A stretch of DNA of 64,000 bases, from assembly GCA_963714375.1 (NCBI GenBank), contig CAVQOG010000006.1:287603-351602 (forward strand), in the 5' to 3' direction. Source of the stretch: an uncultured Acidimicrobiia bacterium (GTDB lineage: Bacteria; Actinomycetota; Acidimicrobiia; Spongiisociales; UBA5794). Made by a program: the position numbers and the translations under genes. Under the pieces are notes generated by a model. That model worked only from the letters and a program-made list of their open reading frames with translations. It did not search any database and was not told the origin of the DNA. Of this stretch, positions 1-61,499 are shown one piece after another; within the stretch, counting starts at the first letter, position 1, and every line of letters starts with the position of its first letter.

Positions 1-98
1 AGTGACAACCAGGAACACGCTCATCCCTACTGCCACAAGAATCACGAGAAGGACCAATTTTGCCTTGGACGTCCAATTGAATCGGATTGCGAGCCACG
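1..98 (-). CDS. ABC transporter permease (FtsX/MacB-like), N-terminal fragment running off the window start
   Basis: The reverse-complement of bases 1-98 reads V-AELNRIAWLAIRFNWTSKAKLVLLVILVAVGMSVFLVV from a GTG at 96-98. This resembles the N-terminus and first TM helix of FtsX-type permeases. It lies directly downstream of the MacB-like ATPase in the same operon orientation. Confidence 0.4.
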
Positions 99-125
99 CG
101 ATGCGGTTCAGTTCGGCCACGGCAT

Positions 126-875
126 CTACCTCAGCTCTCCCTTGACAAGCTCGAGCCGGTGACTGGCCATGGAAGCGATGGTGCTGTCGTGTGTCACCAT
201 CACGACGGTTGTCCCGAACCGTGATGACAGCGACAGGATTGTTTCAGCGACGCTGTTGGCCGTTTCCTCGTCGAGGTTGCCCGTTGGCTCGTCGGCCACG
301 AACAATGAGGGGTCGGAGAACAAGGCGCGCCCGATTGCTACGCGTTGGCGTTGACCGCCAGACATTTGGTTCGGTTTGCGACCAGCGACCTCCCCTATGT
401 CGAGTTGTTCGAGGATCTCGGTGGCTCGTTGGCGGGCAATGCGACGCCGACCGGTTTGGGATCGGAAGAACCAAGGGAGCATCACGTTTTCCGCGGCCGA
501 TAGGGAGCTTTCCAGGTGGTACGACTGAAACACGATTCCGATCGATGTCGAACGCAAGGATGCAATCGTGTTGTCCGACAGCCTTGAGACCTCAACGTCG
601 TCGAGAGTGACGTTTCCCGCCGTCGGTCGCCGAAGCAGTGACAGAACGGAAATTAGAGTCGACTTGCCGCTTCCCGATCTGCCCACGATGGCTGTGGAAG
701 TTCCGCGGCGGAATTCAACGTCGACATCGCGAAGCGCCACAACCGGGCCCAGCGGGGACGGATACTCAACGGTGACCGATGACAGCACCGCCGCATTCGC
801 GCTCAACCTATTGCTCCTCGAGAGGGACGAGCTCGGCACCAACCAATACGTCGGACGTGATAACCCGCAAAACAC
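126..875 (-). CDS. ABC transporter ATP-binding protein (LolD/MacB/FtsE family)
   Basis: Walker A GRSGSGKST, ABC signature LSGGQRQRVAIGRAL and Walker B LFVADEPTGNLD are present. The ORF's 5' end overlaps the upstream adaptor gene, so the true start is probably internal, near 790. Confidence 0.9.
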   Translation of the reverse strand: MFCGLSRPTYWLVPSSSLSRSNRLSANAAVLSSVTVEYPSPLGPVVALRDVDVEFRRGTSTAIVGRSGSGKSTLISVLSLLRRPTAGNVTLDDVEVSRLSDNTIASLRSTSIGIVFQSYHLESSLSAAENVMLPWFFRSQTGRRRIARQRATEILEQLDIGEVAGRKPNQMSGGQRQRVAIGRALFSDPSLFVADEPTGNLDEETANSVAETILSLSSRFGTTVVMVTHDSTIASMASHRLELVKGELR

Positions 876-1707
876 CGTCGGTCACTCCCACAGTGACCGG
901 GACCTTAGAGACCTCGCCGTCGAGCACCACGTTGACGAAGTATCCATCGGTCACCTTGTCGTATCCAACAAATACGTTGGGTACAACGATGGCTCCCTTC
1001 ATCAGCTCCGACTTCAGAATGACCCTCGCCCGAAGACCCGGAGCGGTCTCAATGTGGGCCGGCAGCCGGCAGTGAAGCGCTGAGGAACTAGGAGCCGCCC
1101 CAGCATCAGACTCGTCAGCCAACTCAGGTGCTTGTATCCAGAGAGCGTCGCAGTCAACCTGGCGTTCACCTGCGATCGTCTCGATCACGGCCTCACCTGA
1201 AAAGCGCAAAGATCGATAACGCAAGTCCTGGATTGGTGTCAGAGCGACGACGACATCGATGCCCGGTGACTGCACGATCGGTGTCGTCCCATGGAACCCA
1301 AACACTCCCCCGACCGGGGCGTCGATCGGACCCTCGAGACCGCGGAGACGCTCAAGTCGAGCCGTATCGATGCTGCCGGCCCCGTTGACGTCGAGCGAAC
1401 GTTCGATCACTGGGTCAATAACTGCCGCTCCGACACGCTGCCCCCGCTCCACCGGGTCGCCGACAGCCACGGAAGCCACGAAAGTCAGCTGGGCCAGCGA
1501 TATCAGGCCAACACTCAGGCCGCCTACCGAGACACCATCAAGATTGAACGTGATCTGAAAGTCGTCCCGGCGGATCTCCACCGCGCGGTCGACCAACGGA
1601 TCATCGGATGACATGCCAGGATTGCCAGGATCAGAGACTGCGGGCGAACACGCGGTCAACAGCACCGCTGCAGCAAGACCAAGAGCCCAGGTTCGTCGGT
1701 ACCTCAC
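808..1707 (-). CDS. HlyD-family efflux periplasmic adaptor lipoprotein (MacA-like)
   Basis: N-terminal signal peptide with lipobox (LLTACS). Length and beta-barrel-rich composition are typical of membrane-fusion proteins. It is in an operon with the ABC ATPase and permease. Confidence 0.7.
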   Translation of the reverse strand: MRYRRTWALGLAAAVLLTACSPAVSDPGNPGMSSDDPLVDRAVEIRRDDFQITFNLDGVSVGGLSVGLISLAQLTFVASVAVGDPVERGQRVGAAVIDPVIERSLDVNGAGSIDTARLERLRGLEGPIDAPVGGVFGFHGTTPIVQSPGIDVVVALTPIQDLRYRSLRFSGEAVIETIAGERQVDCDALWIQAPELADESDAGAAPSSSALHCRLPAHIETAPGLRARVILKSELMKGAIVVPNVFVGYDKVTDGYFVNVVLDGEVSKVPVTVGVTDGVLRVITSDVLVGAELVPLEEQ

Positions 1708-2195
1708 TCTTCTCCTTCGACAACGTCCCTGATTGTCGGTCCGGACGCCTCACCGGGGTTCGCCGGGATCCACCGACCGCAACTCCCCTCAGCGGTGAGC
1801 CAGAAGCGAAGCTGCTCCAGTTCACCGGAATCGAGCCTGGTCTCGAGTTGGGCGTACGAGGTCTTCCAGTCTGTATATGACGGCTCTCTGGGGCTGACCG
1901 GTGCCGGGAGCGGACCAAGATCAGGGGCTACCCCTCTGGTGATCCAGTCCTCGTAGACACGAAAGGCATCTCGACAAACCACAAAGTTGATCACAATGCC
2001 CTGAGCCATGCTCTCCTTCGTGTCCTCGGGTTCCTCTTCGATCTTCTGCCGAGCTACCGGATTGACTAGCACCTCAGCCACGACGACCTCATCGAGCCCC
2101 TCAAAAAATGAAGCGTCAACCGATAGCGGTTCCGCTGAATCACAACCGGTAACCACCAACAGAAAACCTACAATGAGAGCTACGTTTCGTTTCAT
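1704..2195 (-). CDS. hypothetical lipoprotein
   Basis: Signal peptide MKRNVALIVGFLLVVTGC with lipobox; no recognisable domain. Confidence 0.45.
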   Translation of the reverse strand: MKRNVALIVGFLLVVTGCDSAEPLSVDASFFEGLDEVVVAEVLVNPVARQKIEEEPEDTKESMAQGIVINFVVCRDAFRVYEDWITRGVAPDLGPLPAPVSPREPSYTDWKTSYAQLETRLDSGELEQLRFWLTAEGSCGRWIPANPGEASGPTIRDVVEGEE

Positions 2196-2508
2196 ACGAA
2201 CCTCAAGTCGAACCGTGTGCGGCCGGGGGACCGGAGATCCACTCCGGTCACCCGCTTGCTTGCGTCAGAACTAACTGCATATTCAATCCTCCTTTGAAAC
2301 AAGCGAGGCCCGGAATTGGCGTTGCTGGCACCCTCCAGGACCGTTCCCGTTCAACCTGCATCCTCCCTTCACAGCTCCGACAGCAACCGGCTCTTGCCGA
2401 CCAACCTATTGTTTGTCAGTCACCGCAGATTGGTTCTCGTCCCGCAAGTTCTCCGCGGCAAAAGCGCACCAGCGTGTACCCGGCAATCGACAACGCGTAC
2501 AAGTGGTG

Positions 2509-5500
2509 TCACCTTCCGATGGCGTTCCGTCCGTGCTCCTGTTCCCTTGTCAGGAGGCGGAGATGACGCTGGACTGCACGCTGGGTGACGATCCATGCGG
2601 CACGCTCGATGACATCGCTGCTGGGCGGTCGCGGTCCGAGGAGGTCGGTAGCATCGTCGGGTATGTCGTGTTCGGTGCGGAATCGGATTGCCCGGTCGAC
2701 GGCAGCGTCCCATGCCCCCTGGCGTTCGTGGTCGCTGGGCCGTTCACCGAGGCTGTTGGTGACCCAATCCGGTGGCTGGAAGGCGATAGTTGCGAGCTGG
2801 TCGCGGTGCCGGTCGCGGATCTCGAGTTCAAGTTTCACGTATTCGACGATCGGTTCGTTTGGAACGTCGTTCGTCTCCGTCAATCGTTCCCCTGCGCCTA
2901 GGGCGGCGAGGCTGTCTTTGACTTCGGTGAGTCGTTGTTTGAGTTGTTCGTCGGTGAGGGTGTTGGGTCCGCGTCCTGTGTCGTGGGCGGCGGGTTCAGC
3001 GGCGGTGCGGGCAAGGGCGGCGATGAGTGCCGGGAGGCGGTCGGGGTGCTCGTGGGCGAGGTGTTCGCATTCTTCCTGGCTCATATCGGGATTGGTGAGG
3101 TAGATCGTGTTGGCTTCGCGACCTCGGCTCATGGTGACGTAAATCCATTCACGGTCGACTCCGTCGCTCGCGACGGTGTGGGCACGTCGTGCTGTGGCTC
3201 CTTGGGCTTTGTGGCCGGTGAGGGCGTATCCCCAGTCGAGGTGACCGTCGTCGAGGTACCAATGCGGCACGTTCGCTGATCGACCGTCGCGGTCCAAACG
3301 GATGGTGACCGTTCGGCGTTCGGTGTCGATTCCGGTGATCGTGGCGAGATCACCGTTGAGGACGCCAAGTCGATCCCGGTTCTTGAGGCACACAACACGG
3401 TCACCGGTCTGGAAGTCGCGGCCCTGAGCCTTCAGAGTGGGTCCCTTGAGCAGTCCGGCTTCGGCAACCAAGGTACGGGCTCGTTGATTGAGTTCATCAA
3501 CGGTGGTGTTGCGGTGACCGATGAGCAGCACCTGGGCAGGATCACCGACCTCTTGGACGTCGCGGTACCAAGCGTCGACTGCCTGGCCGATGGTGTCATC
3601 GTCGGTGGGTGCGACGCTGATTTTGCCGCGTCGGTTGTACATAGCAACCGCCCGCGACACTGAGCCTTCACGTAGTTCGGTGAGTGCGGTTCGTTCCCAC
3701 CCTTGGCCCTGTCGGACATTCTCAGTCAACTCGACGACCGGGAGACGGGCCGTCAGCGCGGCGAAGAGACCACCGGCGTCTATCTCGGCGAGCTGGCGGT
3801 GGTCACCGATCAGGATGAGCTTGCCCGATGCAGCCTCGACGAGGTCGGAGACTTGGGCGAGTTGACGGGTCCCGACCATCCCGGATTCATCAACAACAAC
3901 GATGGCGCCAGCGGGGAGCCCACCGGCTGCCTTGGTCTCCCACAGAAACCGCGTGATCGTCGTGGACGAGATACCGGTGGAGGTTTCGAACCCCGCAGCC
4001 GCCCGAGCAGCGAGAGCCGCACCCACGACGGGCGTGCCGGTCTGTGAGGCGAGGTCGCCGATAATGGACATGACGGTGGTCTTGCCAGTACCTGCGGCTC
4101 CCACCCCCACGTCGATGGCGTTGCCCGATGTGGCGAAGCGGCGGACCATCGCCCGTTGCCCATCGGTCAGACTCAAGTCGGCGTCGAGGGCCGCGTCGAC
4201 TTGCGAATCCGGTACGGCCCAGCGGTCGGCCTCGATCCCGGCGATGGCACGGTTGATGATCCGCTGCTCGATCGTGAGGAGTTCGGTGGTGGTGTAGCGG
4301 CGTTCATTGACAAGTCCCGGGAAGGTCACTCCATTCTTCCGACGCAGAATCCTGGGCCTGGCCGAATCGACGAGCTCGAGAAGGCGTTCGAGTTCAATCG
4401 GGTCAAACTCGATGGGCGGATCTACGCCAGCATCAACGGCCGTATGGCTAGGCAAGATGGCGACCACATCTGAACGGTGCAGGAATGTATCGGCGAGGGC
4501 TTCGACCTCAGCCCGTCGTCCGCCCTCGGGAAGAGCCTCTGCCGCTGCCATGATCACATCTGGGCGCCCGAACGTCGATGCTTGGGCAGTCAGTCCCTCG
4601 GCGGATGCCAACCGGTCAAACACGGGCTCAGGATCAGGGATCGTGACCTCTTGGCGCCGCCCAAGCAACAATGCCACTGATTCGGGTGTCACTCCCACTT
4701 CGGAGCCCCGTTCCATCCAATGCGGGATGAGCGTGTCGAGTGGGTGGTCTCGTTTGGGGCTGCGGGTCGCAAGGGTTGCGATCTCGTTCACACCAGGAGT
4801 ATCGGGAAGGTTCCGAGCGTCACGCCAGGATTCAATCTGTTGGCGTCGCTGGGAGAACGCCACGATCTGGTCCCGGGTGAACCCCTCGATGTCAGCCATA
4901 CCTTTTTGGACTGGTTGCCAGCGGACCCCGAGGCGTTCCGTGAGACGGCTCCGCAGCTCAGCTTCGTGGAGATAGCCAGCTGCGAGCTTGTGCCGATACA
5001 ACAGACGCCCGTCAACAGCACGCCACACCCCATCGACACCTTCCACCCTGTTTCCGACCACAACATGGGTATGGAGCTGTGGGTCGTCGGCACGGCTCGT
5101 GAACTCGGTGAAACACGCAGACACGTACCCGTTGGCACGGATCGGCCACGTCTCCACCCGCTGACGAGGAAGACCGTCCTCGTCGAGGATCGGCTTGCCC
5201 TCGTCGTCCAAGACCGGTGTCCGGGACGCTCCCCGGGTAGAAGATGCCACCGACTCCAGATAGGTCAAAGCCTCGGTGGTGGACTCCCCAAACGCTTCAA
5301 CCACGTGACGTCGGACCTCGTCGTCGCCAAATGCCCAGAGAAGCGATACCGATTTGTCAGCAGAAAAGGTCAGATCCCACGCAGCCACCCCATCCTTTCG
5401 AATCCGACGCCCCAGCTGCTCCCCCGTCGCTGGATGTTGTCCGTCGAAGAGCCGAACCAGACCCTCACCCGACACAGTGCCCGCCAGGCCCAGTTCGGTG

Positions 5501-5622
5501 GCGCCGCTGCCATGCCAGCGACCCTTCGCCGTCCCGCCCCGCAAGTAATAGTCCTCACGAGGCGAGATCTCCCCGAGCTTTTCGAGGTAGTAGTCCTTGT
5601 GGGCCTTGGCGATACTCAACAT
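2509..5622 (-). CDS. MobF-family conjugative relaxase (TrwC domain) fused to a RecD-like/AAA_30 helicase (TraA-like)
   Basis: N-terminal TrwC relaxase region (MLSIAKAHKDYYLEKLGEI...DLTFSADKSVSLLWAFG...HTHVVVGN). Central Walker A GAAGTGKTT and UvrD_C-like C-terminal region. The ORF-track start at 5706 is probably upstream extension; MLSIAK at 5622 fits the family N-terminus. Confidence 0.88.
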   Translation of the reverse strand: MLSIAKAHKDYYLEKLGEISPREDYYLRGGTAKGRWHGSGATELGLAGTVSGEGLVRLFDGQHPATGEQLGRRIRKDGVAAWDLTFSADKSVSLLWAFGDDEVRRHVVEAFGESTTEALTYLESVASSTRGASRTPVLDDEGKPILDEDGLPRQRVETWPIRANGYVSACFTEFTSRADDPQLHTHVVVGNRVEGVDGVWRAVDGRLLYRHKLAAGYLHEAELRSRLTERLGVRWQPVQKGMADIEGFTRDQIVAFSQRRQQIESWRDARNLPDTPGVNEIATLATRSPKRDHPLDTLIPHWMERGSEVGVTPESVALLLGRRQEVTIPDPEPVFDRLASAEGLTAQASTFGRPDVIMAAAEALPEGGRRAEVEALADTFLHRSDVVAILPSHTAVDAGVDPPIEFDPIELERLLELVDSARPRILRRKNGVTFPGLVNERRYTTTELLTIEQRIINRAIAGIEADRWAVPDSQVDAALDADLSLTDGQRAMVRRFATSGNAIDVGVGAAGTGKTTVMSIIGDLASQTGTPVVGAALAARAAAGFETSTGISSTTITRFLWETKAAGGLPAGAIVVVDESGMVGTRQLAQVSDLVEAASGKLILIGDHRQLAEIDAGGLFAALTARLPVVELTENVRQGQGWERTALTELREGSVSRAVAMYNRRGKISVAPTDDDTIGQAVDAWYRDVQEVGDPAQVLLIGHRNTTVDELNQRARTLVAEAGLLKGPTLKAQGRDFQTGDRVVCLKNRDRLGVLNGDLATITGIDTERRTVTIRLDRDGRSANVPHWYLDDGHLDWGYALTGHKAQGATARRAHTVASDGVDREWIYVTMSRGREANTIYLTNPDMSQEECEHLAHEHPDRLPALIAALARTAAEPAAHDTGRGPNTLTDEQLKQRLTEVKDSLAALGAGERLTETNDVPNEPIVEYVKLELEIRDRHRDQLATIAFQPPDWVTNSLGERPSDHERQGAWDAAVDRAIRFRTEHDIPDDATDLLGPRPPSSDVIERAAWIVTQRAVQRHLRLLTREQEHGRNAIGR

Positions 5623-5830
5623 CTCGCCGCCCCCACGATGTCTACATGTATACATCCCGCAACTTGTTGCACATGCGTGTGGTGAAGAGGACGGTTTGAT
5701 TGGCAACGGCTGACAGGGTGCCGCGACGCGATGTTGATGGCTACTTGTCGGTACCTGTTGGTTGTCATCGGGTTCTTCTCCTCGATCTGGCTCATTGGGC
5801 TGATCGTGGAGGAGGACCCTGTCACCAGAA

Positions 5831-5847
5831 TGTCAGTAACCCTGTCA
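5831..5847. repeat. inverted copy of the TGACAGGGTTACTGACA motif
   Basis: tgtcagtaaccctgtca is the exact reverse complement of the 17-mer found at 6065-6081. Confidence 0.7.
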
Positions 5848-6060
5848 AAGGAGAGAAATCTCGCCGAATCCCACCGCGGCAACGAGGGGAATCGGCCGTT
5901 AGGCGCTGCAACGCCTGGGAAACGGCAACCGTGCGGTAGCCACGGCAATATCCAGGAACGTCGGATCTTTCCAAGGATTCCGCCCTCGAAACGTCGCTCT
6001 GTCAGTGAGCGTCGTCACATTTGAGAGTCCTGAAGACGTCAATAGCAATCTGATAACAGT

Positions 6061-6168
6061 CTGATGACAGGGTTACTGACAATCTGATGACAGGGTTGCT
6101 GACACTCTGGTGAGAGGGCTCGCCAAACAGACCTGGCTCCAGGTTGCTGAGACTTTGGTGAGAGGGTT
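6061..6168. repeat. cluster of four direct repeats (ctgRtgaSagggYt), iteron-like
   Basis: ctgatgacagggtta (6061), ctgatgacagggttg (6084), ctggtgagagggct (6105) and ttggtgagagggtt (6155). A degenerate copy tgataacagt lies at 6051 and ttgacagggtc lies in the int promoter at 6320. The cluster sits between the relaxase and integrase genes. Confidence 0.7.
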
Positions 6169-6319
6169 GGGCGGCACGATCGACGTGTAGAAACAACAGA
6201 ACATGAGACCAGCTGAGACGATGCGGTAGATCAGCTCCACCACCGAGATTGTCGGTGTACGAGCCCGTCATGAATGATTGGCATCTCACCACGCGAGGTG
6301 GTCGTGAGATAGCATCGGA

Positions 6320-6348
6320 TTGACAGGGTCGTGGGTCACGACTACTCA
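6320..6348 (+). promoter_or_regulatory. sigma70-like promoter for the integrase gene (TTGACA-17-TACTCA)
   Basis: ttgaca at 6320-6325, 17-nt spacer, tactca at 6343-6348. An AGGAGG RBS at 6384-6389 lies 4 nt before the ATG at 6394. Confidence 0.5.
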
Positions 6349-6393
6349 AGGGAATTCGACATTCAAATCGCAGTCCGACACGAAGGAGGCTGA

Positions 6394-7476
6394 ATGGCAT
6401 CGATCAATCCGCACATGACCACCAGAGGTGAACGCAGATACATCGTGCGTTTCCGAGATCCAGCAAATCGCCAGCAGCAGAAGACGTTCCGGCGCAAGGT
6501 CGATGCTGAACGGTTCCGCAACGCCGTTGAGGTATCCAAGGACCAAGGGACCTACGTCGATGGGCGTGCAGGGAACGTGACCTTTGCGGTTATCGCCGAT
6601 CGTTGGCTTGGGACCCGTAGCGATAAGGCCCGCTCAACCCGTGACCGTGACAGCTCGTACTTGCGGTCATTGATCCTGCCGACATTTGGCGATCGGATCA
6701 TCAAGTCGATCAGGCCATCTGAAGTCGAGACCTGGCTCGCTTCGATGGACAAGGCACCCAACACCAAAGGCCGAGCACTTCAGATTGTCCGAAGCGTCTT
6801 TGATCTTGCTCGCCGGGACCGACTCATCGCCTCGAACCCGGCAGCCGATGTAGGGCCCCCTCCGATGAAACCACTTCGCACCGGACGCGCACTTACCGAC
6901 GGCGAGATGAATGCCATGATCATCGCCGCTGAGGAAGTCGACGAACGAACAGCGGTGATCGTTCACCTGATGGCCCGCTGCGGACTTCGCATCGGAGAAG
7001 CCCTCGCCTTGCGGCGCCAGGACGTGGACCTCGATTCCAACACGCTCACCGTCGCTACGACGATGACCCGCGAGGAAGGCATCCGACCGGTGAAGGGGCG
7101 CGTCAGGGAGGACGAGGGTCGGGTCATACCCATCCCGAGCGATGTCGCCGAACGATTGCGCCATCACTTCAACCAGCGACCCATCACCAACATCGGTGGG
7201 TTCATCGTGACCTCGCCACGCGGTGGCCCGCTCCACTACAACAACTGGCGAGCCAGGGTCTGGGTCAGGATCACACAGCGGATCGACTTCGACGTGACGC
7301 CGCACGACCTACGACGCACCGCAGCAACCCGCTTGTTCCTCGTGGACCGTTGGACACCAGCTGAGGTGCAGGCCTTCATGGGACATCTCGACCCTCGTGT
7401 GACACTCGGAATCTACACCGTTGTTGCATCCGAAAAGCTCCCCCGACCGTCCACTTTGCGCATGCAGATCATTTGA
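6394..7476 (+). CDS. int: tyrosine-type site-specific integrase (phage integrase family)
   Basis: N-terminal SAM-like region and C-terminal catalytic domain. The R..HDLRRTAATRL..GH..........Y residue pattern (HDLRRTAATRLFL, AFMGHLDPRVTLGIYTVV) is present. The gene is adjacent to a tRNA 3' end. Confidence 0.9.
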   Translation: MASINPHMTTRGERRYIVRFRDPANRQQQKTFRRKVDAERFRNAVEVSKDQGTYVDGRAGNVTFAVIADRWLGTRSDKARSTRDRDSSYLRSLILPTFGDRIIKSIRPSEVETWLASMDKAPNTKGRALQIVRSVFDLARRDRLIASNPAADVGPPPMKPLRTGRALTDGEMNAMIIAAEEVDERTAVIVHLMARCGLRIGEALALRRQDVDLDSNTLTVATTMTREEGIRPVKGRVREDEGRVIPIPSDVAERLRHHFNQRPITNIGGFIVTSPRGGPLHYNNWRARVWVRITQRIDFDVTPHDLRRTAATRLFLVDRWTPAEVQAFMGHLDPRVTLGIYTVVASEKLPRPSTLRMQII

Positions 7477-7538
7477 CGTGTGGGGTTTTTGTGGGGTTTT
7501 CACCTCGCAAGCGACACACGGAAAGTCCGAGAAACGAC

Positions 7539-7566
7539 AGAAACCCATGCAGCCGCAAGGGTTTCT
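7539..7566. terminator. hairpin (agaaaccc-N12-gggtttct) between the integrase stop and the tRNA-Val 3' end
   Basis: 8-bp perfect inverted repeat. It lies 5 nt beyond the tRNA 3' end, so it may be the tRNA terminator and/or part of the att region. Confidence 0.45.
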
Positions 7567-7571
7567 GTACG

Positions 7572-7643
7572 TGGGCGATACTGGATTTGAACCAGTGACC
7601 CCTGCCGTGTCGAGGCAGTGCTCTGCCGCTGAGCTAATCGCCC
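7572..7643 (-). tRNA. tRNA-Val (anticodon GAC)
   Basis: Reverse complement GGGCGATTAGCTCAGCGGCAGAGCACTGCCTCGACACGGCAGGGGTCACTGGTTCAAATCCAGTATCGCCCA folds as a 72-nt cloverleaf. Acceptor GGGCGAT/ATCGCCC, T-arm ACTGG-TTCAAAT-CCAGT, anticodon stem CTGCC/GGCAG, loop TCGACAC. Confidence 0.8.
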
Positions 7644-7689
7644 TTTCGGGATTCGGAAGATAGCGGCGGGTTCAGGGAAAGCGCAACGC

Positions 7690-8763
7690 TCAGGCGGCAA
7701 GGGCTTTCTTGGCGCTATCACGTCTCCACAGCAGCAGGGTGATGACACCGATGATGACCTGGGGGAAGTACGTGAAGGCCCTCCATACCAGCGTTGCGGC
7801 GAGCGCGTCGTTCTGTGACATCCCGAATCCCGCGAGCATGCTGGTGATGATGGCATCCGTTGTACCGAGCCCACCGGGTGGGATCGGAATGAACGTCGCC
7901 AAGCGCCCGAGCGCAAAGGCAGCGAACGCCTCGGCGAGCGTGATGGGACCGTCGAAGCCGCCCTGAAGCGCCACCACGGCGAGATAGAGGATCGAGAACT
8001 GAGCGAGTTGCTGTGCAACATTGGCCGCCGTGATGAGAATCCAGCGGTCTGCCACGACGTCGATGATCGAAATCCTGAAGTCAACGAGTGCCTCGGCAGC
8101 ATCGAACGAGACTTCCTTGTGGATCAACCCGGCACCCCAGCCGATGACCGCGTTGCCCCATCCGCCGATCTTTCGAGCCAGGTTCTCGCTCCGCAGGATG
8201 AGGGCAAGCCCACCGACCATCAGCACAACCAGGATCGCGGCGACCACGGTGAGGAGCACATCGTCTGCACCGGTCTGTCCGGTGATCGTGAGCCCGATGA
8301 TCGCCAAGAGGGGCAGAGACAGGGTGACAAGCGTGTTCCATACGCTTGTGATGCCGATGACCGCCGTTGTCGGCGCCGGACCGTATCCGTAGCTCGACAG
8401 CATTCCGTACTGGACCGCAAGCCCCCACGCCCCGCCACCGGGGATGACATTGGAGATCATGAACGATGTTTGGCGCGTGTAGAACCCGTGCTTGAAGCGA
8501 AGCTGTGGCATCGCAGCCGTGTACGGAAAGACGTAGAGGATGATCAGACCAACCGTGGCCGCCGTGATGAGCCCGAGTTGCCACGCCGTCATGCCCTGGA
8601 TCGCTGTCCACGCTGCTGCGTAGTCGCCGAACTGGGGCAGCACCACCACGAAAACAATGACGAGAACAATGAGCGTCAGAATCGTTGCGATGATCTGCTG
8701 CTTGCCAAACTTGGGTTTGGGTGGCTGGAGCGGATCGGGTGTCTGTTGAACGTCGTCGGCCAT
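7690..8763 (-). CDS. lysylphosphatidylglycerol-synthase transmembrane-domain (UPF0104/flippase-like) membrane protein
   Basis: Multi-pass hydrophobic protein with a conserved GxxxRLAT..PIPPGGLGTTD-like segment typical of the MprF TM/flippase-like family. The ORF track extends it to 8910, which would run through tRNA-Cys. The start is placed at MADDVQ (8763). Confidence 0.55.
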   Translation of the reverse strand: MADDVQQTPDPLQPPKPKFGKQQIIATILTLIVLVIVFVVVLPQFGDYAAAWTAIQGMTAWQLGLITAATVGLIILYVFPYTAAMPQLRFKHGFYTRQTSFMISNVIPGGGAWGLAVQYGMLSSYGYGPAPTTAVIGITSVWNTLVTLSLPLLAIIGLTITGQTGADDVLLTVVAAILVVLMVGGLALILRSENLARKIGGWGNAVIGWGAGLIHKEVSFDAAEALVDFRISIIDVVADRWILITAANVAQQLAQFSILYLAVVALQGGFDGPITLAEAFAAFALGRLATFIPIPPGGLGTTDAIITSMLAGFGMSQNDALAATLVWRAFTYFPQVIIGVITLLLWRRDSAKKALAA

Positions 8764-8842
8764 TGTGTGCCTTTGTGCGATACGGACCAAGAAACTCTCG
8801 GGTAGTGGGACTCTAGGCGTTTGGAAGCACCGAATACGGGTT

Positions 8843-8916
8843 TGGAGGCGACGGCGGGATTCGAACCCGCGTACAGGGTTTTGCAGACCCTTGCCTAGCC
8901 ACTCGGCCACGTCGCC
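8843..8916 (-). tRNA. tRNA-Cys (anticodon GCA)
   Basis: Reverse complement GGCGACGTGGCCGAGTGGCTAGGCAAGGGTCTGCAAAACCCTGTACGCGGGTTCGAATCCCGCCGTCGCCTCCA. Anticodon loop CTGCAAA; CCA is encoded. Confidence 0.9.
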
Positions 8917-8956
8917 GAATAAGAAAAGCGGCCACAGCGGACCGCCCTCCTCTCGG

Positions 8957-9030
8957 AGCGGACGACCGGGATCGAACCGGCGACCTCAACCTTGGCAAGG
9001 TTGCGCTCTACCAGCTGAGCTACGTCCGCG
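8957..9030 (-). tRNA. tRNA-Gly (anticodon GCC)
   Basis: Reverse complement GCGGACGTAGCTCAGCTGGTAGAGCGCAACCTTGCCAAGGTTGAGGTCGCCGGTTCGATCCCGGTCGTCCGCT. Anticodon loop TTGCCAA. Confidence 0.9.
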
Positions 9031-9061
9031 CTGGCGTGATGGTATCACGGGGAGGTTCTTT

Positions 9062-9499
9062 CTACGGTTGAGCGACGCCGGTGGATCCGAAGCCCCCAGT
9101 GCCCCGATCTGTGTCATCAAGCCTCTCAACCTCGACGAATTCTGGTGACTCGATCCGCATCACAACCAGTTGCGCGATGCGGTCGCCAACGTCAATCACA
9201 AACACGGCATCCGAGTGATTGATGAGTCCAACCCTGAGCTCGCCCCGGTACCCCGAATCGATGAGTCCGGGAGCATTCGCAACCGTGATCCCGTGTTTGA
9301 TCGCCAAACCCGACCGGGGAAGGACGAAGCCCGCAAAGCCCCGCGGGATCGCCATCGACAAACCGGTTCCAACGAGGACGGTCTCTCCTGGCCCAATGGT
9401 GTGGCCCTCTGCCGCTGAAAGGTCAGCACCGGCATCCCCGAGATGGGCGGCGACAAGCATGGGAATCCGTTGATGTGAGCGAGCGACAGGTATCTTCAT
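9062..9499 (-). CDS. dut: dUTP diphosphatase
   Basis: Conserved Dut motifs (PRSGL, GLIDSGYRGEL, DRIAQLV, DRGTGGFGSTG). The start is placed at MKIPVARS; the longer ORF-track N-terminus is low-complexity. Confidence 0.9.
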   Translation of the reverse strand: MKIPVARSHQRIPMLVAAHLGDAGADLSAAEGHTIGPGETVLVGTGLSMAIPRGFAGFVLPRSGLAIKHGITVANAPGLIDSGYRGELRVGLINHSDAVFVIDVGDRIAQLVVMRIESPEFVEVERLDDTDRGTGGFGSTGVAQP

Positions 9500-9525
9500 G
9501 GGCGGATTCTCCCACGGAGCGCGCA

Positions 9526-10896
9526 CACATGACGACCAAGTTCCCAGACGACCACGACGAAGGCGATGGCTCGTGGTTCTTGGAGGCAGTCGGCGCAACT
9601 CCACCTACGCCAACGGCAGCCGACGCAATGGCCGAGCTCACGAAAGAGAACGAGGTGATTCCACCTCCGGACCCGGACGACACACAGGAACCTGAAGCGG
9701 CACAGACTCCAACCGTTGCCTCTGCTGCGAGGGTCAACGCTGATGCTGCCTCGGAAAACACTGCCTCAGAAAACACTGCCTCGGAAAACACTGCCTCAGA
9801 GAGCAATGTCTCGGAAGACTCTGTCTCGAAGGACGCAGCGACCATTGCCATGCGCACGACCCAGATCACGACATCATCATTCGATGGTGATCCCGGGACG
9901 ACAAACGCCACCTACGACCGCTCCCGTCGGCCACCCAGCAGTCCAACAACAACACGCCCGATGCCTCCGCCGCCGCCTCCCCCAATTCTGGCACCAGCAG
10001 CCACCATTGCTGCCCCTCCCCCGGCTGCGGCGGTTGAACCACCACCTGTCGACGCAACCCTCGCTCGACCGCTCCAAACCAAACGATCGTTTCGCTGGCC
10101 GATCGTGGTGGTCCTCGTCCTCTTGATCGCTGTCGTCGCTATTGCCGCTCTCTGGCTGCCGCAGGCGACTGAGTCAGAAGCGCTCAAGGTTCGCCAGTCG
10201 TACTACGACGCCAGCTCGGCGGTCCGCAACCACTTGCCTCCGACCCAAACGGCACTCGATGCGATCACCACAGTCGATTCATCCCCCGAGTCACTCTCGG
10301 CAGCAATTCCGATCATCGCAACGCTTGACAGCTTGGCATTCGATATGGAGGCCACCGCTGCAGAGCCTCTGCCCAGCGTGCTCCCCCTCGTTCCCAAGGG
10401 TGCGATCGACGAACTCAAGCCACTCCAACAACAAACAGCCATCCTCGGCGTCGAGGGAACCCAGATGGCATCACGCCTCGGAAATGGCTACATCTATCGC
10501 ACGACCATCCCGGGTCTCATGGACACCGGGAATCTTCCGACATCGGCTTCAACCGAAACGATCAACACGATCAGTGTGACCCTCGCAACCTCACTCTCGA
10601 CGGATGCGGCAGCGGTGGCAGGGCTCCCGGATGACGCCACCTTCAATGACGTGCGGGAGGAAGCCTTGACCAGCCACGCGCGCTACACGGATTGGCAGTC
10701 CGAATACCTCTCGGCGCTCACGTCAGAGAACACGGAGCTCGCACTCACCTTGGTCACGGAACTCGATGAAATGCGAATCAATCTGAACGCCGCCAACGCC
10801 ACTGCACTCGGAGAATTCAGGACAGAAGTGGACGTCTGGATCGTCACGTACGCCGGCCAACTCGAGGCGCACATGGCGGAACTCACTCAGAGCTGA
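9526..10896 (+). CDS. hypothetical proline-rich single-pass membrane protein with TASEN tandem repeats
   Basis: Pro/Ala-rich N-terminal region, one TM helix (WPIVVVLVLLIAVVAIAALWL) and a roughly 250-aa C-terminal domain of unknown function. Divergent from dut. Confidence 0.55.
   Translation, partial: HMTTKFPDDHDEGDGSWFLEAVGATPPTPTAADAMAELTKENEVIPPPDPDDTQEPEAAQTPTVASAARVNADAASENTASENTASENTASESNVSEDSVSKDAATIAMRTTQITTSSFDGDPGTTNATYDRSRRPPSSPTTTRPMPPPPPPPILAPAATIAAPPPAAAVEPPPVDATLARPLQTKRSFRWPIVVVLVLLIAVVAIAALWLPQATESEALKVRQSYYDASSAVRNHLPPTQTALDAITTVDSSPESLSAAIPIIATLDSLAFDMEATAAEPLPSVLPLVPKGAIDELKPLQQQTAILGVEGTQMASRLGNGYIYRTTIPGLMDTGNLPTSASTETINTISVTLATSLSTDAAAVAGLPDDATFNDVREEALTSHARYTDWQSEYLSALTSENTELALTLVTELDEMRINLNAANATALGEFRTEVDVWIVTYAGQLEAHMAELTQS
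9746..9835 (+). repeat. in-frame 15-bp tandem repeat (ctgcctcRgaaaaca), four good and two degenerate copies, encoding (TASEN)n
   Basis: Direct reading of 9746-9835. Confidence 0.8.
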
Positions 10897-19322: not shown

Positions 19323-20561
19323 TTACTCGGCTTCAAGGGCAGAGCGCACCATGTGGAGAGCTGCAGTCGCCGTGTATGCCCTGATGCGCTCGCGGTCCCC
19401 TGGCATGGTGAAGGTTCGCACGTATTCCGTCGTCGGTGTCGCAACCGCGACAATCATTGTTCCAACGGGCTGCTCCATCGGTTCGGGCCCAGCCGAACCG
19501 GTGACGGCAACCGCAATGTCGGTTCCGAGGACACCTCTGGCGCCCTTCGCCATAGCAACAGCGGTTTCCTGCGAGACAACGCCATATTCCTCTATGACAC
19601 TCGATGAAACACCGAGAATCCCTGTCTTCAAGTCGGTCGCATACGCAACGATCGAACCGCGGAACGTGGCGCTCGAACCACCGATCATGGTGAGACGTCG
19701 TGCAATGAGACCGCCTGTCGCCGATTCTGCCGATCCGATCGTCCATCCACGGTCCAAGAGCTGGTTGTGGATCACTCGCTCAACCGTTTCGTCATCCACC
19801 CCGAATATCCGATCGCCAAGACGTGCACGAACCTCCGCTTCGACGGGGGCGATCAGCGCCTCCGCCTCGACGGTCGAAGCGGCAGCTGCCGTCAACCTGA
19901 TCTTGATTTCACCCGCCGAAGCGAGAAAAGCCACCGTCGGGTTCACGGAACCGACGAAGAGATCATCAAGCACCTCGCCGACCTTCGCCTCGGACATCCC
20001 CCAGCTGCGGAGCATCCGACTCGTCACCACGCCAAGAGCGGTTCCCGATTCGGCAAGAAGGAAAGGCATAACCGTCTCGTCGAGCATTGTGCGCATCTCA
20101 GCAGGTACACCCGGAAGACAGATGACCCAGCAGTCCCCGATCTTGATGCGAAACCCCGGTGCCGACCCCTTTGGGTTGTCGATCACGACGGCACCCTGTG
20201 GGCGATACGCCTGCTTCATGTTCGATTCCGGGAATTGACTGTTGCGCGCCTCCCACTGGGCACGCATTTCGGCCGCGTACTCCTCGTCAAGCATGAGCGG
20301 CATTCCGGAGACCGCAGCCACGCTCTCGCGTGTGGCATCGTCCTGGGTCGGGCCGATTCCCCCTGTGATGATCAACGCGTCGGATCGCACGACGGCTGCT
20401 CCAATCGCCCCATCCATACGATCCCTGTTGTCTCCGACGACGGATTGCCTCATGTGGGTGAGTCCCGAGTCTGCTAGCCGAATCGCGATCTCGGAGGCAT
20501 TGGTGTTGACGACCTGGCCAAGGAGTAGTTCGGTCCCAACGGCAAGGGTCTCAACAATCAT
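19323..20561 (-). CDS. cinA: competence/damage-inducible protein CinA (MocF-like N-domain + nicotinamide-nucleotide amidase C-domain)
   Basis: MIVETLAVGTELLLGQVVNTN N-terminus and C-terminal CinA domain (ESATGGLIA). The start overlaps the rimO stop by 4 nt. Confidence 0.85.
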   Translation of the reverse strand: MIVETLAVGTELLLGQVVNTNASEIAIRLADSGLTHMRQSVVGDNRDRMDGAIGAAVVRSDALIITGGIGPTQDDATRESVAAVSGMPLMLDEEYAAEMRAQWEARNSQFPESNMKQAYRPQGAVVIDNPKGSAPGFRIKIGDCWVICLPGVPAEMRTMLDETVMPFLLAESGTALGVVTSRMLRSWGMSEAKVGEVLDDLFVGSVNPTVAFLASAGEIKIRLTAAAASTVEAEALIAPVEAEVRARLGDRIFGVDDETVERVIHNQLLDRGWTIGSAESATGGLIARRLTMIGGSSATFRGSIVAYATDLKTGILGVSSSVIEEYGVVSQETAVAMAKGARGVLGTDIAVAVTGSAGPEPMEQPVGTMIVAVATPTTEYVRTFTMPGDRERIRAYTATAALHMVRSALEAE

Positions 20562-29548: not shown

Positions 29549-31801
29549 CTAGCCGAGAACGCTCTCCAGTTCATCCTCTGAGATCAGTACTGATCTTGCC
29601 TTCGATCCGACCGAAGGACCGACGATGCCCCGTGACTCAAGAATGTCCATCACGCGGCCGGCTCTGGCAAACCCGATGCGCAGCTTGCGCTGGAGCATCG
29701 AAGTCGAACCGAGTTGGCTTCGTACGATGAGCTCGATCGCCTCTCGCATGATCTCGGGATCTTCCCCATCGAAATCCTCCAAGTCAGCTGCTTCCTGCTT
29801 CGCTTGCTCGAACACTTCGGCGTCCCGATACTGGGCATCGCGCTGCTCACGAACCCAGTCAACGGCAGCATGGACTTCAGCCTCGGTGACGAACGATCCC
29901 TGTATGCGCTCAGGCTTGGGTTCACGAGATGTCACCACGAGCATGTCGCCAAGACCTACGAGCTTGTCCGCCCCGCCCTGGTCGATAATGACGCGGGAAT
30001 CCGTCTGGGATGCCACCGAGAAGGCAAGACGAGAAGGCACGTTTGCCTTGATGACACCGGTAATCACGTTTACGGACGGGCGTTGTGTTGCAAGCACGAG
30101 GTGTATTCCAACCGCTCGGGCCATCTGGGCGATCCGGACGATCGAATCCTCGACGACCTTGCCGGCAACCATCATGAGGTCGTTGAGCTCATCAACAACG
30201 ATGACGATGTAGGGAAAACGATCGAACATCTCCTCGTCGAGGCCACCGGCGTCGTACTGCTCACGGTATGAGTCAATGTCACGAACACCGGCGTCGGCGA
30301 GAAGGTCGTAACGACGATCCATTTCCGACACGGCCCATTGGAGGGCGTCGGCAGCCTTCTTGGGGTTCGTGATGACTCTCGTGAGAAGGTGCGGCACGTC
30401 GTTGTACTGACCAAGCTCCACACGTTTCGGATCGACGAGGATCAAACGCACCTCTTCCGGGGTGGCTCTCATGAGGATCGACGTCAGAAGAGAGTTGATA
30501 CAGGACGATTTTCCGGCACCCGTTGCACCTGCGATCAACACGTGCGGAAGCTCGGTGAGTCGCAACATGCGGGCAGCACCAGAAACGTCCATGCCGAGGG
30601 CAACAAGCATCGGGTCGTGGTCAAGTGTTGCGATGTCTGACCGGAGGATCTCGCCGAGCGTGACAAGATGACGTTTCCGGTTTGGAACCTCGATCCCAAT
30701 TGCTGACTTGCCAGGAATCGGAGCAAGGATCCGCACATCGTGCGCCGCCAAGGCATACGCGATGTCGTTACTCAAATTCGTGACCTTGGCGACCTTGACC
30801 CCAGGGGCAAGTTCGATCTCATAGCGTGTCACGGTGGGTCCTGGAACAATCCGCGTGAGGTTCGCTTCGACCCCGTGCTGGCGAAGGGCGTCCTCGAGTG
30901 CTTCGCCGGTCTCCTTGAGACCTCGTCCGTCGTGGCCATTGTTGGAAGACACAGACAGGATGTCGAGTGGCGGAAGCGTGTAGCCGTCCATCTTCACCGG
31001 TACAGCGACCTTCGGCTGAACGGGCTTGGCGTTTTGCGGTCCTGTTGGCTCTGGATTTCGCTGCTTCTTCGGTCGGGTGTTCGGCGCTGGCTCCACCGAC
31101 TCGGGTTGGGTTGAGGCGATGAGAGGCCTATCCACGAGCACGGTCGAATCTGCCTCCGCGTCTGATCGACCAAAACCGGAGAACCGAACAAATCCAGTGA
31201 AGTAGGTGCCGATCTGGCGGAAGACATCCCCAAGGGATGCCCTGGTGATCAGGAGAGCACCCACACCGATCACAGCGACGAGGACCACTGATGTACCCCA
31301 GTAGCCGATCAGGCGTTCGAGTGGGAACGTGATGAGCGATCCAACCGCTCCCCCGTGCTCTGACACAGATTCGGTTCCCCCCGCAAGCGGCACATTTCCC
31401 GTGAAGAGGTGGAAAAGAGCGACCGAACCGACGAAGAGGATTCCAACACCAACCACGGTGCGGCCGTGATCGTCCTTGTTGATGAGACCGATCAGAGAAG
31501 CTCCAGCAATGATGAGAGCGAGCGGAACAGCGAATGCCCAGACACCGAATAGGACCCTCGCCACTCCCGATGCCGAGGAACCAACCGGCCCCGAAAGCTC
31601 GAAGAACGAGAGGGTCAGAAGGAGTGATGCAACGATGAGGACGACACCCCAAACGTCCCTGCGATGGTCGCCGAGTGATTCGCCGATCTTTCCCGGCACT
31701 GCCCCCAGCGCGGAGGTCGTCCGTTTCAGTCTCGACTGTTTCTTCTTTTTTCGTGCGGTACTCCGCCCCTTGGCCCCACCCGATGTGGTGCGAGTGGCCA
31801 T
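29549..31801 (-). CDS. ftsK: DNA translocase FtsK/SpoIIIE
   Basis: N-terminal TM segments, Pro/Gln-rich linker, motor domain with Walker A GATGAGKS, and a C-terminal gamma (winged-helix) domain. Confidence 0.93.
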   Translation of the reverse strand: MATRTTSGGAKGRSTARKKKKQSRLKRTTSALGAVPGKIGESLGDHRRDVWGVVLIVASLLLTLSFFELSGPVGSSASGVARVLFGVWAFAVPLALIIAGASLIGLINKDDHGRTVVGVGILFVGSVALFHLFTGNVPLAGGTESVSEHGGAVGSLITFPLERLIGYWGTSVVLVAVIGVGALLITRASLGDVFRQIGTYFTGFVRFSGFGRSDAEADSTVLVDRPLIASTQPESVEPAPNTRPKKQRNPEPTGPQNAKPVQPKVAVPVKMDGYTLPPLDILSVSSNNGHDGRGLKETGEALEDALRQHGVEANLTRIVPGPTVTRYEIELAPGVKVAKVTNLSNDIAYALAAHDVRILAPIPGKSAIGIEVPNRKRHLVTLGEILRSDIATLDHDPMLVALGMDVSGAARMLRLTELPHVLIAGATGAGKSSCINSLLTSILMRATPEEVRLILVDPKRVELGQYNDVPHLLTRVITNPKKAADALQWAVSEMDRRYDLLADAGVRDIDSYREQYDAGGLDEEMFDRFPYIVIVVDELNDLMMVAGKVVEDSIVRIAQMARAVGIHLVLATQRPSVNVITGVIKANVPSRLAFSVASQTDSRVIIDQGGADKLVGLGDMLVVTSREPKPERIQGSFVTEAEVHAAVDWVREQRDAQYRDAEVFEQAKQEAADLEDFDGEDPEIMREAIELIVRSQLGSTSMLQRKLRIGFARAGRVMDILESRGIVGPSVGSKARSVLISEDELESVLG

Positions 31802-61344: not shown

Positions 61345-61433
61345 GGAGGGTTGGCAGAGAGGCCGAATGCGGTCGATTGGTATTCGGCTGGCCGGTTACG
61401 TACTGGTCCGGGGTTTGAATCCCCCACCCTCCG
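61345..61433 (+). tRNA. type-II (long variable arm) tRNA-like gene with apparent anticodon GGT; possibly a variant tRNA or a pseudogene
   Basis: Fold: acceptor GGAGGGT/ACCCTCC, D-stem GCA/TGC with 11-nt D-loop, anticodon stem GTCGA/TCGGC with loop TTGGTAT, 20-nt variable arm (CCGG-TTACGTA-CTGG) and T-arm CGGGG-TTTGAAT-CCCCC, then discriminator G + CC. Deviations: T instead of C at T-loop position 56, and a C:C pair at 49:65. Confidence 0.45.
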
Positions 61434-61499
61434 CCTTTGGGAACGAAGGCAGAAGTCAGAAGTCAAACCCCTGATGAGCAGGAGTTGCAAAGCAACCCA

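Follow-up and report, generated by a model that had tools for sequence, protein, structure and literature searches.

What kind of DNA occupies the left end of a 64,000-nt stretch of an Acidimicrobiia genome (contig CAVQOG010000006.1; the whole stretch is referred to below as the window), where an integrase gene and a relaxase gene stand beside a gene for tRNA-Val, and could it move between cells? A sequence-only reading of the window had proposed an integrative mobilizable element (IME) at this tRNA gene, with a tyrosine integrase ending about 95 bp from the tRNA 3′ end, an intact TrwC-relaxase/helicase fusion, and a dense repeat cluster and a strong promoter between the two genes. It had seen no type IV secretion system (T4SS), coupling protein or TraB and no left copy of the attachment site (att), had called for comparison with an empty site in related genomes and a hidden Markov model check of the relaxase, and had named the lack of catalytic tyrosines in the relaxase as grounds for giving the idea up. 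In this study, we find that the segment from about position 7570 leftwards past position 1 is very probably an integrated member of an IME family that is common in uncultured Acidimicrobiia. The locus carries its own site-specific recombinase (the integrase at 6394-7476) and its own relaxase (2509-5622), and it is inserted relative to the empty site of a related contig, L096. This empty site, the catalytic residues of the relaxase and the recurrence of the same module in many other genomes support the IME that had been proposed.

Integrase and tRNA-Val target

The gene at 6394-7476 (+ strand) encodes a full-length tyrosine integrase of 360 aa, which matches the Pfam models of the catalytic, central and SAM-like N-terminal domains (PF00589, Phage_integrase, 3e-19; PF22022, Phage_int_M; PF14659, SAM_3). 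The motifs ARCGLRIGE, HDLRRT and GH...LGIYT are legible in its translation. The stop codon lies 94-95 bp from the 3′ end of tRNA-Val(GAC), which is encoded on the − strand at 7571-7643 according to ARAGORN and at 7572-7643 according to Rfam, so that ARAGORN, Rfam and Pfam agree with the arrangement first read from the sequence. This tRNA gene is the integration target, and the att core is predicted to cover approximately the 3′ 45-50 nt of tRNA-Val, from 7571 to about 7620.

The association with this tRNA is repeated elsewhere. A metagenome scan with the integrase returned 11 contigs, and all nine that reach far enough (L085-L093) have tRNA-Val(GAC) downstream. Their integrases are 65-86% identical to that of the window, and the tRNA usually lies about 95 bp from the integrase, within a Val-Cys-Gly cluster. 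Among these tRNA-Val contigs, L086 alone (integrase identity 80%) was noted to show the start of a divergent relaxase too. L085, which has the closest integrase (86%), encodes a 595-aa putative sensor histidine kinase at 1533-3320, in the gap between the integrase stop codon and tRNA-Val; because of this protein, cargo can also occupy the integrase side.

Insertion relative to an empty site

The comparison with an empty site was provided by L096, a 38-kb contig from the Joint Genome Institute (JGI), whose flanking gene is 76% identical to that of the window. From position 7555 of the window rightwards, the two sequences are collinear over more than 13 kb (nucleotide identity about 77%) and share one gene order: tRNA-Val, a flippase-like gene, tRNA-Cys, and tRNA-Gly. 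To the left of its tRNA-Val, L096 has genes for Mtb12_C, NMO, PRTase, NifU, and GPAT proteins and neither an integrase nor a relaxase, and none of these left-flank genes is present in the window. Synteny thus breaks at the 3′ end of tRNA-Val, and at least 7.5 kb to the left of about 7555 is therefore non-syntenic. A strong hairpin at 7534-7572, between the integrase stop codon and the tRNA 3′ end (DNA fold z = −3.9 on both strands), is probably the tRNA-Val terminator. Because it partly resembles the hairpin that follows tRNA-Val in L096, the right edge of the inserted DNA is fixed only within about 40 nt.

The far left of the window (1-2195, − strand) is taken up by a MacAB-like export operon consisting of a lipoprotein gene (1704-2195), a gene for an adaptor-like lipoprotein (808-1707), an ABC ATPase gene (126-875), and the start of a membrane-protein gene (120 to 1), which runs past the window edge. 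The assignment comes from a Pfam ABC_tran match, an NCBIfam match to LolD/MacB-type ATPases and a weak RND_mfp match. No homologue of this operon exists at the empty-site locus of L096, and it sits where relatives have variable cargo, suggesting that it is probably cargo and belongs to the element.

The empty site also bears on the idea that the integrase and relaxase genes are ancestral chromosomal paralogues or the remnant of a prophage. The GC content of the element is not set apart from that of the remaining window, and actinophage integrases share about 30-34% identity with that of the window, as such an origin would allow. We nevertheless reject both readings on the basis of the empty site and the gene content. 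The site is empty in L096, and the same module recurs at ten tRNA genes with att repeats (see below); no phage structural gene was found with Pfam or NCBIfam, and searching viral contigs with the integrase gave no relatives. An ancestral or phage origin is thus scarcely conceivable. A megablast search of 1-9100 against plasmids returned matches to the tRNAs only.

A MobF relaxase with a fused helicase

The gene at 2509-5622 (− strand) encodes an intact MobF (TrwC-type) relaxase with a superfamily 1B (SF1B) helicase and a C-terminal domain. The fusion is intact, as first described, and its length is 1037 aa instead of the 1038 aa originally given. Pfam identifies TrwC (PF08751, 3.5e-72), AAA_30 (2.3e-51), AAA_19 and the RecD-like SH3_13 domain, and its score against NF041492, the NCBIfam equivalog model for MobF, is 211.7 bits (cut-off 100). 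It thus shows the TrwC-type N-terminal domain, the two tyrosine pairs and the fused RecD/TraI-like SF1B helicase of the MOBF class, and the Walker A motif GAAGTGKT is legible in the translation. Alignment of 21 homologues indicated that YY11-12, YY25-26, D82, H183, H185 (the HxH motif) and the helicase Walker motifs are invariant; both tyrosine pairs, the possible loss of which had been raised, are therefore in place. The protein also aligns to the structures 1OMH, 3L57, and 1P4D, the set that comprises pCU1 TraI, R388 TrwC and F TraI. The second tyrosine pair (YY25-26) aligns with the DDYY of pCU1 TraI, and the pattern ...TSRxxDPxLHTH...N is kept in this alignment.

More than 100 clusters of relaxase homologues share 60-84% identity, and almost all of them come from metagenome-assembled genomes (MAGs) labelled Acidimicrobiia. 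The best annotated matches in the plasmid collection are MobF relaxases of Arthrobacter, Rhodococcus, Dietzia, Mycobacterium, and Kocuria.

An element family in Acidimicrobiia

We collected 84 loci with relaxase homologues (6 from a contig look-up and 78 from a scan of genome contigs) and analysed the 58 that are of the Acidimicrobiia type. The integrase is upstream of and divergent from the relaxase in 31 of the 58, at a median distance of about 0.8 kb. About 24 loci have a tRNA gene directly next to the integrase; in the others the contig mostly ends there. Ten tRNA species are targeted: Arg-CCT, Arg-ACG, Val-CAC, Val-TAC, Val-GAC, Ala-CGC, Ile-GAT, Lys-TTT, SeC, and Phe. Seven loci, representing five distinct elements, are bounded by direct repeats, 42-56 bp long, that copy part of the tRNA, and their sizes are 6.3 kb (L032), 10.6 kb (L050), 12.3 kb (L033), 13.1 kb (L001 and L018), 13.3 kb (L045), and 13.9 kb (L057). 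Among four distinct att-bounded relatives, the repeats are the 3′ 47-49 nt of the tRNA in three and the 5′ part in the Arg-CCT type. In the Arg-CCT relatives (L001 at 6492-6565 and 19606-19647; L032, L045, and L050) the called integrase gene overlaps the tRNA gene, and in the Val, Ile, and Phe cases the tRNA 3′ end is targeted.

Clustering of the open reading frames (ORFs) indicated that only the relaxase, the integrase and an HTH_17 protein of about 63 aa located between them (29 loci) are conserved, and no gene is conserved downstream of the relaxase across loci. Among the cargo carried between the repeats are Fic, Usp, a P-type ATPase, an extracytoplasmic function (ECF) sigma factor, insertion sequence elements and many proteins of no assigned family; this cargo yields no Pfam matches of the type IV coupling protein, VirB4 or FtsK type. 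Because of the conserved core, the tRNA att repeats and the absence of recognisable channel genes in the bounded relatives, the profile is that of an IME rather than of a self-transmissible element. The parts of the window that were scanned are in line with the lack of transfer genes noted at the outset. The visible 7.5 kb contains no coupling protein or mating-pore genes by Pfam and NCBIfam, and the only FtsK-domain protein among the ten largest ORFs scanned beyond 24 kb is the housekeeping FtsK (29549-31801; alpha, gamma and 4TM domains), which lies 22 kb away from the element.

Several copies can occur per MAG at different tRNAs, as in the four loci of MFD05684.bin.2.275. For close relatives of the relaxase, the contig breaks off within the box-rich spacer described below, a few hundred bases ahead of the relaxase gene (L099:1-450, L100:1-775, L101:1-399), as expected if the region is present in multiple copies and breaks assemblies. 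Defence genes are located directly downstream of the relaxase at L022:19371-21873, L043:13157-20053, L014:15267-22552, and L099:4321-11061, and the types found there are McrBC, a complete type I restriction-modification system, DUF6079 with an Eco57I-like methylase, and a helicase/SMC-like/MTaX1 set. A called gene of 62 aa at L001:9644-9832 consists of a partial duplicate of the HTH_17 N-terminus (LLTVQDLAEYLG) fused to the translation of a repeat box, and it is probably a rearrangement scar and not a gene.

Repeat boxes and a candidate origin of transfer

The spacer between the integrase and relaxase genes is 771 bp long and repeat-rich. Its non-coding control region (5684-6393) contains six exact TGACAGGG/CCCTGTCA boxes, at 5711, 5817 (− strand), 5840 (− strand), 6065, 6088, and 6321; the window has nine exact TGACAGGG copies in all, of which six lie within 5711-6328. 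Degenerate box copies are located at 6094-6118 and 6142-6166, direct repeats of 23-25 nt occupy 6046-6166, and a 32-nt inverted pair joins 5816-5847 with 6065-6096. The dense repeat cluster of the sequence-only reading is thus real. The strong TTGACA-17-TACTCA promoter placed there is not supported: a consensus scan of 2100-7700 returned no sigma-70-like site, and the TTGACA belongs to the TGACAGGG box at 6321-6328.

Box offsets of −96, −202, about −420 and −443 from the relaxase start recur in relatives, including loci without an integrase and without the HTH_17 gene. Because they are present at integrase-less loci, the boxes belong to the module formed by the relaxase and the origin of transfer (oriT) and not to arm binding by the integrase; they are probably binding sites for a relaxosome or regulatory factor. 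Comparison of the window with L086 and other relatives revealed no conserved small ORF in the spacer, and the small accessory genes called in the spacers of relatives were discarded as translations of repeat boxes or as unconserved. In L096, GACAGGG / CCCTGTC palindromes that resemble the TGACAGGG boxes lie at 7270-7315, just left of tRNA-Val, and may reflect chance or the trace of an earlier insertion.

A candidate oriT core occupies 5659-5681 on the + strand and precedes the relaxase start by 36-58 nt. In it, the inverted repeat GCAAC-TT-GTTGC leads into the conserved tail ACATGCGTGTG; as a pattern, the + strand reads GCAAC/GTTGC and then A-N-R-TGCGTGTG. This oriT-like sequence occurs once in the window. 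Upstream of the relaxase, CACACGCA-NN-TGCAAC-N(1-3)-GTTGC is found at −59, −47 or −38 relative to the start codon in 51 of 53 Acidimicrobiia loci. The motif together with the inverted repeat is present in 59 of 63 distinct upstream regions, compared with 1% of shuffles and one of 68 internal control segments. The inverted repeat was scored in each sequence separately, with these shuffle and internal controls, and MAFFT alignment set stems of differing length out of register.

The layout is kept upstream of distant relaxases (36-42% identity; Nitriliruptoria and others) with other stems: GCACTGG/CCAGTGC, GCACTCG/CGAGTGC, GCACAC/GTGTGC and GCACC/GGTGC, the last being that of the distant relative L080. 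Each of these stems runs into a tail ending in ...GTCTGTGT or ...GTGTGTGG, and five different stem sequences are found across the clades. The arrangement resembles the nic regions of MOBF systems, namely those of R388 (IR2 followed by GTATTGTCT/AT) and F (...GCGTGGGGTGT/GGTG). We regard 5659-5681 as a well-supported candidate oriT. The + strand is predicted to be the nicked (T) strand, and the nick position is likewise a prediction.

A possible recombinant copy and the points against mobility

The copy in the window has peculiarities of its own. Its relaxase and box pattern are nearest to those of loci whose divergent neighbour is not an integrase, namely L022 (83% identity), L048, and L014. 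In these three, the divergent gene encodes a 646-aa fusion of ArdC-N and DnaG primase. It comes with a LysM protein of 1120 aa and Tad-like genes (T2SSE ATPase, T2SSF, and RcpC/CpaB), and restriction or defence genes follow downstream. The ArdC-primase/LysM/Tad-like arrangement spans L022:1-9516, L054:536-9059, and L014:1298-9534. Such loci may represent a self-transmissible type of element in Acidimicrobiia, and their candidacy as helpers of the smaller elements is speculation on our part. The copy in the window looks like a recombinant of an integrase module and a relaxase/oriT module that is shared with the larger elements.

Several observations speak against the assignment of the segment to a mobilizable element or against the oriT within it. 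L096 and the window are only about 77% identical, so that the synteny break may include rearrangements other than the insertion. The relaxase has Glu172 in place of the first histidine of the three-histidine metal site, and this glutamate is invariant in the 21 aligned members (E172-F173 are encoded at 5104-5109). Because the family passes the MobF model, we read Glu172 as a variant of the metal site peculiar to this family. Many cargo proteins of the bounded relatives have no Pfam match and could include an unrecognised transfer protein. As regards the oriT, the 5-bp stem folds no better than shuffled sequence, so that no stable hairpin is indicated, and a double-stranded operator would give equal symmetric changes in the stems.

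Further points on this side concern parts that this copy seems to lack. When the 29 HTH_17 sequences of the family were used as tBLASTn queries, no copy of this excisionase-like gene was detected in the window; the gene is present in the relatives with 65%-identity integrases (L087, L088, L090, and L091) and absent from the closest relative, L086. No second copy of the 3′ half of tRNA-Val was found in the window by exact words, with up to three mismatches, at ungapped identities of about 50-60%, or by local alignment; the left att copy sought would be a 40-50-nt direct copy of GTGGGCGATACTGGATTTGAACCAGTGACCCCTGCCGTGTCGAGGCAGT. The left att is thus out of view, as the sequence-only reading had said, and the element is therefore at least 7.5 kb long. 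Both absences, and a relaxase and box pattern (−96, −202, about −450) nearest to that of the larger ArdC/Tad-like elements, which suggests a recombinant origin, would suit an immobilised remnant of a mobilizable or larger conjugative element, from which the excisionase-like gene, and perhaps the left att, has disappeared. We consider a remnant unlikely. Both large genes are full length and retain their catalytic residues, and the independent L086 shares the layout without HTH_17, indicating that this layout has persisted and spread. The left end may simply lie beyond the window, given that the bounded relatives are 6-14 kb long and 7.5 kb is visible.

Finally, no helper conjugative system was identified in the proteins scanned from the window, nor was a coupling protein. 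The TrwC-type protein might then serve mainly as a rolling-circle replication initiator and helicase of the excised circle of an integrative plasmid-like island, since relaxases of the HUH type and rolling-circle initiators are mechanistically related and some integrative and conjugative element (ICE) relaxases replicate the excised form. The protein passes the MobF model, however, and its nearest characterised relatives are all conjugative (pCU1 TraI, R388 TrwC, F TraI, and the MobF of actinobacterial plasmids). The same relaxase clade also stands beside ArdC-primase, LysM and secretion-ATPase genes typical of transfer regions. A role mainly in replication is accordingly improbable, more so than an immobilised remnant, and we retain the mobilizable element as the best account of the segment.

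Proposed transfer pathway

We propose a transfer pathway for the element. The integrase would recombine the att of the element with the 3′ part of tRNA-Val(GAC), leading to insertion or excision. In the excised circle, the MobF relaxase would nick one strand at the oriT just upstream of its own gene (GCAAC/GTTGC followed by ...TGCGTGTG). It would stay covalently attached via an N-terminal tyrosine, and the helicase domain would unwind the DNA. The nucleoprotein would then pass to the coupling protein and mating channel of another, self-transmissible element in the same cell. With the + strand as the T strand, transfer into the recipient would begin at the integrase side and finish with the relaxase gene. 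We infer that the element depends on a helper and that this copy may currently be mobile.

Surrounding chromosome

To the right of tRNA-Val lie tRNA-Cys and then tRNA-Gly, as called by ARAGORN in agreement with Rfam; these three tRNAs are the only Rfam families in 1-10000. In both the window and L096, the flippase-like gene (7690-8763, − strand; LPG_synthase_TM or MprF N-terminal type) separates tRNA-Val from tRNA-Cys. The gap between the two tRNAs is only 22 bp in the more distant relatives L088-L090 and L092, 21 bp in L085, and 67 bp in L093. The rest of the window is housekeeping chromosome, with nrdR-lexA-dapF-miaA-miaB-rny-recA in synteny with L096; Pfam also recognised ftsK, RNase J, and dnaE elsewhere in the window. 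ARAGORN called a tRNA-Thr(GGT) at 61345-61435 (+ strand), which at 91 nt is unusually long for a Thr tRNA.

Relation to known elements

Canonical IMEs, as defined by Guedon et al. 2017 (PMC5704250), include NBU1 and Tn4555 of Bacteroides and the streptococcal IMEs. Those known carry MobP, MobQ, MobV or MobC relaxases and none carries MobF or MobH, and a single actinobacterial IME is listed (PMC5704250, which also reviews the replication of excised ICEs). Later surveys reported thousands of IMEs across phyla (PMC10201445). Like canonical IMEs, the element described here has a site-specific integrase and encodes a relaxase of its own, next to which lies an oriT-like site; its cargo is of the variable kind, it is inserted at the 3′ end of a tRNA gene, and no coupling or mating-pore genes were seen in it. 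It differs in having a MobF relaxase with a fused helicase, in its Acidimicrobiia host and in having no recognisable excisionase.

The relaxase shares with R388 TrwC, pCU1 TraI and F TraI the N-terminal TrwC fold signature with paired tyrosines and LHTH and then the SF1B helicase, and the candidate oriT has a short inverted repeat with a conserved 8-12-nt tail, much like that of R388. The identity to the solved relaxase domains is low (E ~1e-24), the first metal-site histidine is replaced by glutamate, the spacing of the tyrosine pairs is 14 residues as against 8, the stem has only 5 bp, and the gene resides on a small integrated element instead of a conjugative plasmid. The MobF (TraA-like) proteins of actinobacterial plasmids have the same domain order and are about 30% identical over approximately 77-80% of the protein; theirs are plasmid-borne beside transfer genes.

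Actinomycete integrative and conjugative elements (AICEs) of the pSAM2 type are likewise tRNA-targeting, tyrosine-integrase elements of 9-24 kb in Actinomycetota. AICEs transfer double-stranded DNA via an FtsK-like TraB and carry Rep and no relaxase (PMC3218068), whereas a relaxase is present here, no element-borne FtsK/TraB was found in the proteins scanned or in the bounded relatives, and Rep is missing too; the element is therefore no AICE. A T4SS-type ICE would have a VirB4-like ATPase and VirD4/TcpA, and neither was found in the visible part, which ends at position 1 on the left, or in the bounded relatives; judged by this visible part, the element does not belong to that class. Actinobacterial surveys have sought TrwC-type relaxases only inside T4SS-type ICEs (PMC3218068). 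Our literature search found no paper on conjugative, mobilizable or relaxase-bearing elements in Acidimicrobiia. The element is a new one within the known IME kind, and its family is probably the first of its sort to be described there.

Significance for Acidimicrobiia

Soils, sediments, and marine systems harbour Acidimicrobiia in abundance, and almost all of these bacteria are uncultured. The module of tRNA, integrase, box-rich spacer, oriT-like motif, MobF relaxase, and variable cargo can be used to annotate genomic islands in MAGs, and it may explain assembly breaks upstream of the relaxase. It can also trace the flow of cargo genes: those of the integrase-type elements include stress proteins and pumps for export and for ions, and restriction or defence genes stand beside the same relaxase family elsewhere. 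The 23-nt sequence at 5659-5681 is available for relaxase nicking tests. Because this kind of element is well known, the annotation is refined rather than the concepts changed. More tentatively, we suggest that the loci could form an undescribed and abundant minimal MobF family, in which a core of integrase, HTH_17 protein, oriT, and relaxase is reduced to as little as 6.3 kb, integrases are swapped over a constant relaxase/oriT module to reach at least ten tRNAs, and the larger ArdC/LysM/Tad-like elements act as helpers. This wider proposal is a reasonable possibility that falls short of being probable; if true, it would provide the first handle on DNA conjugation in Acidimicrobiia.

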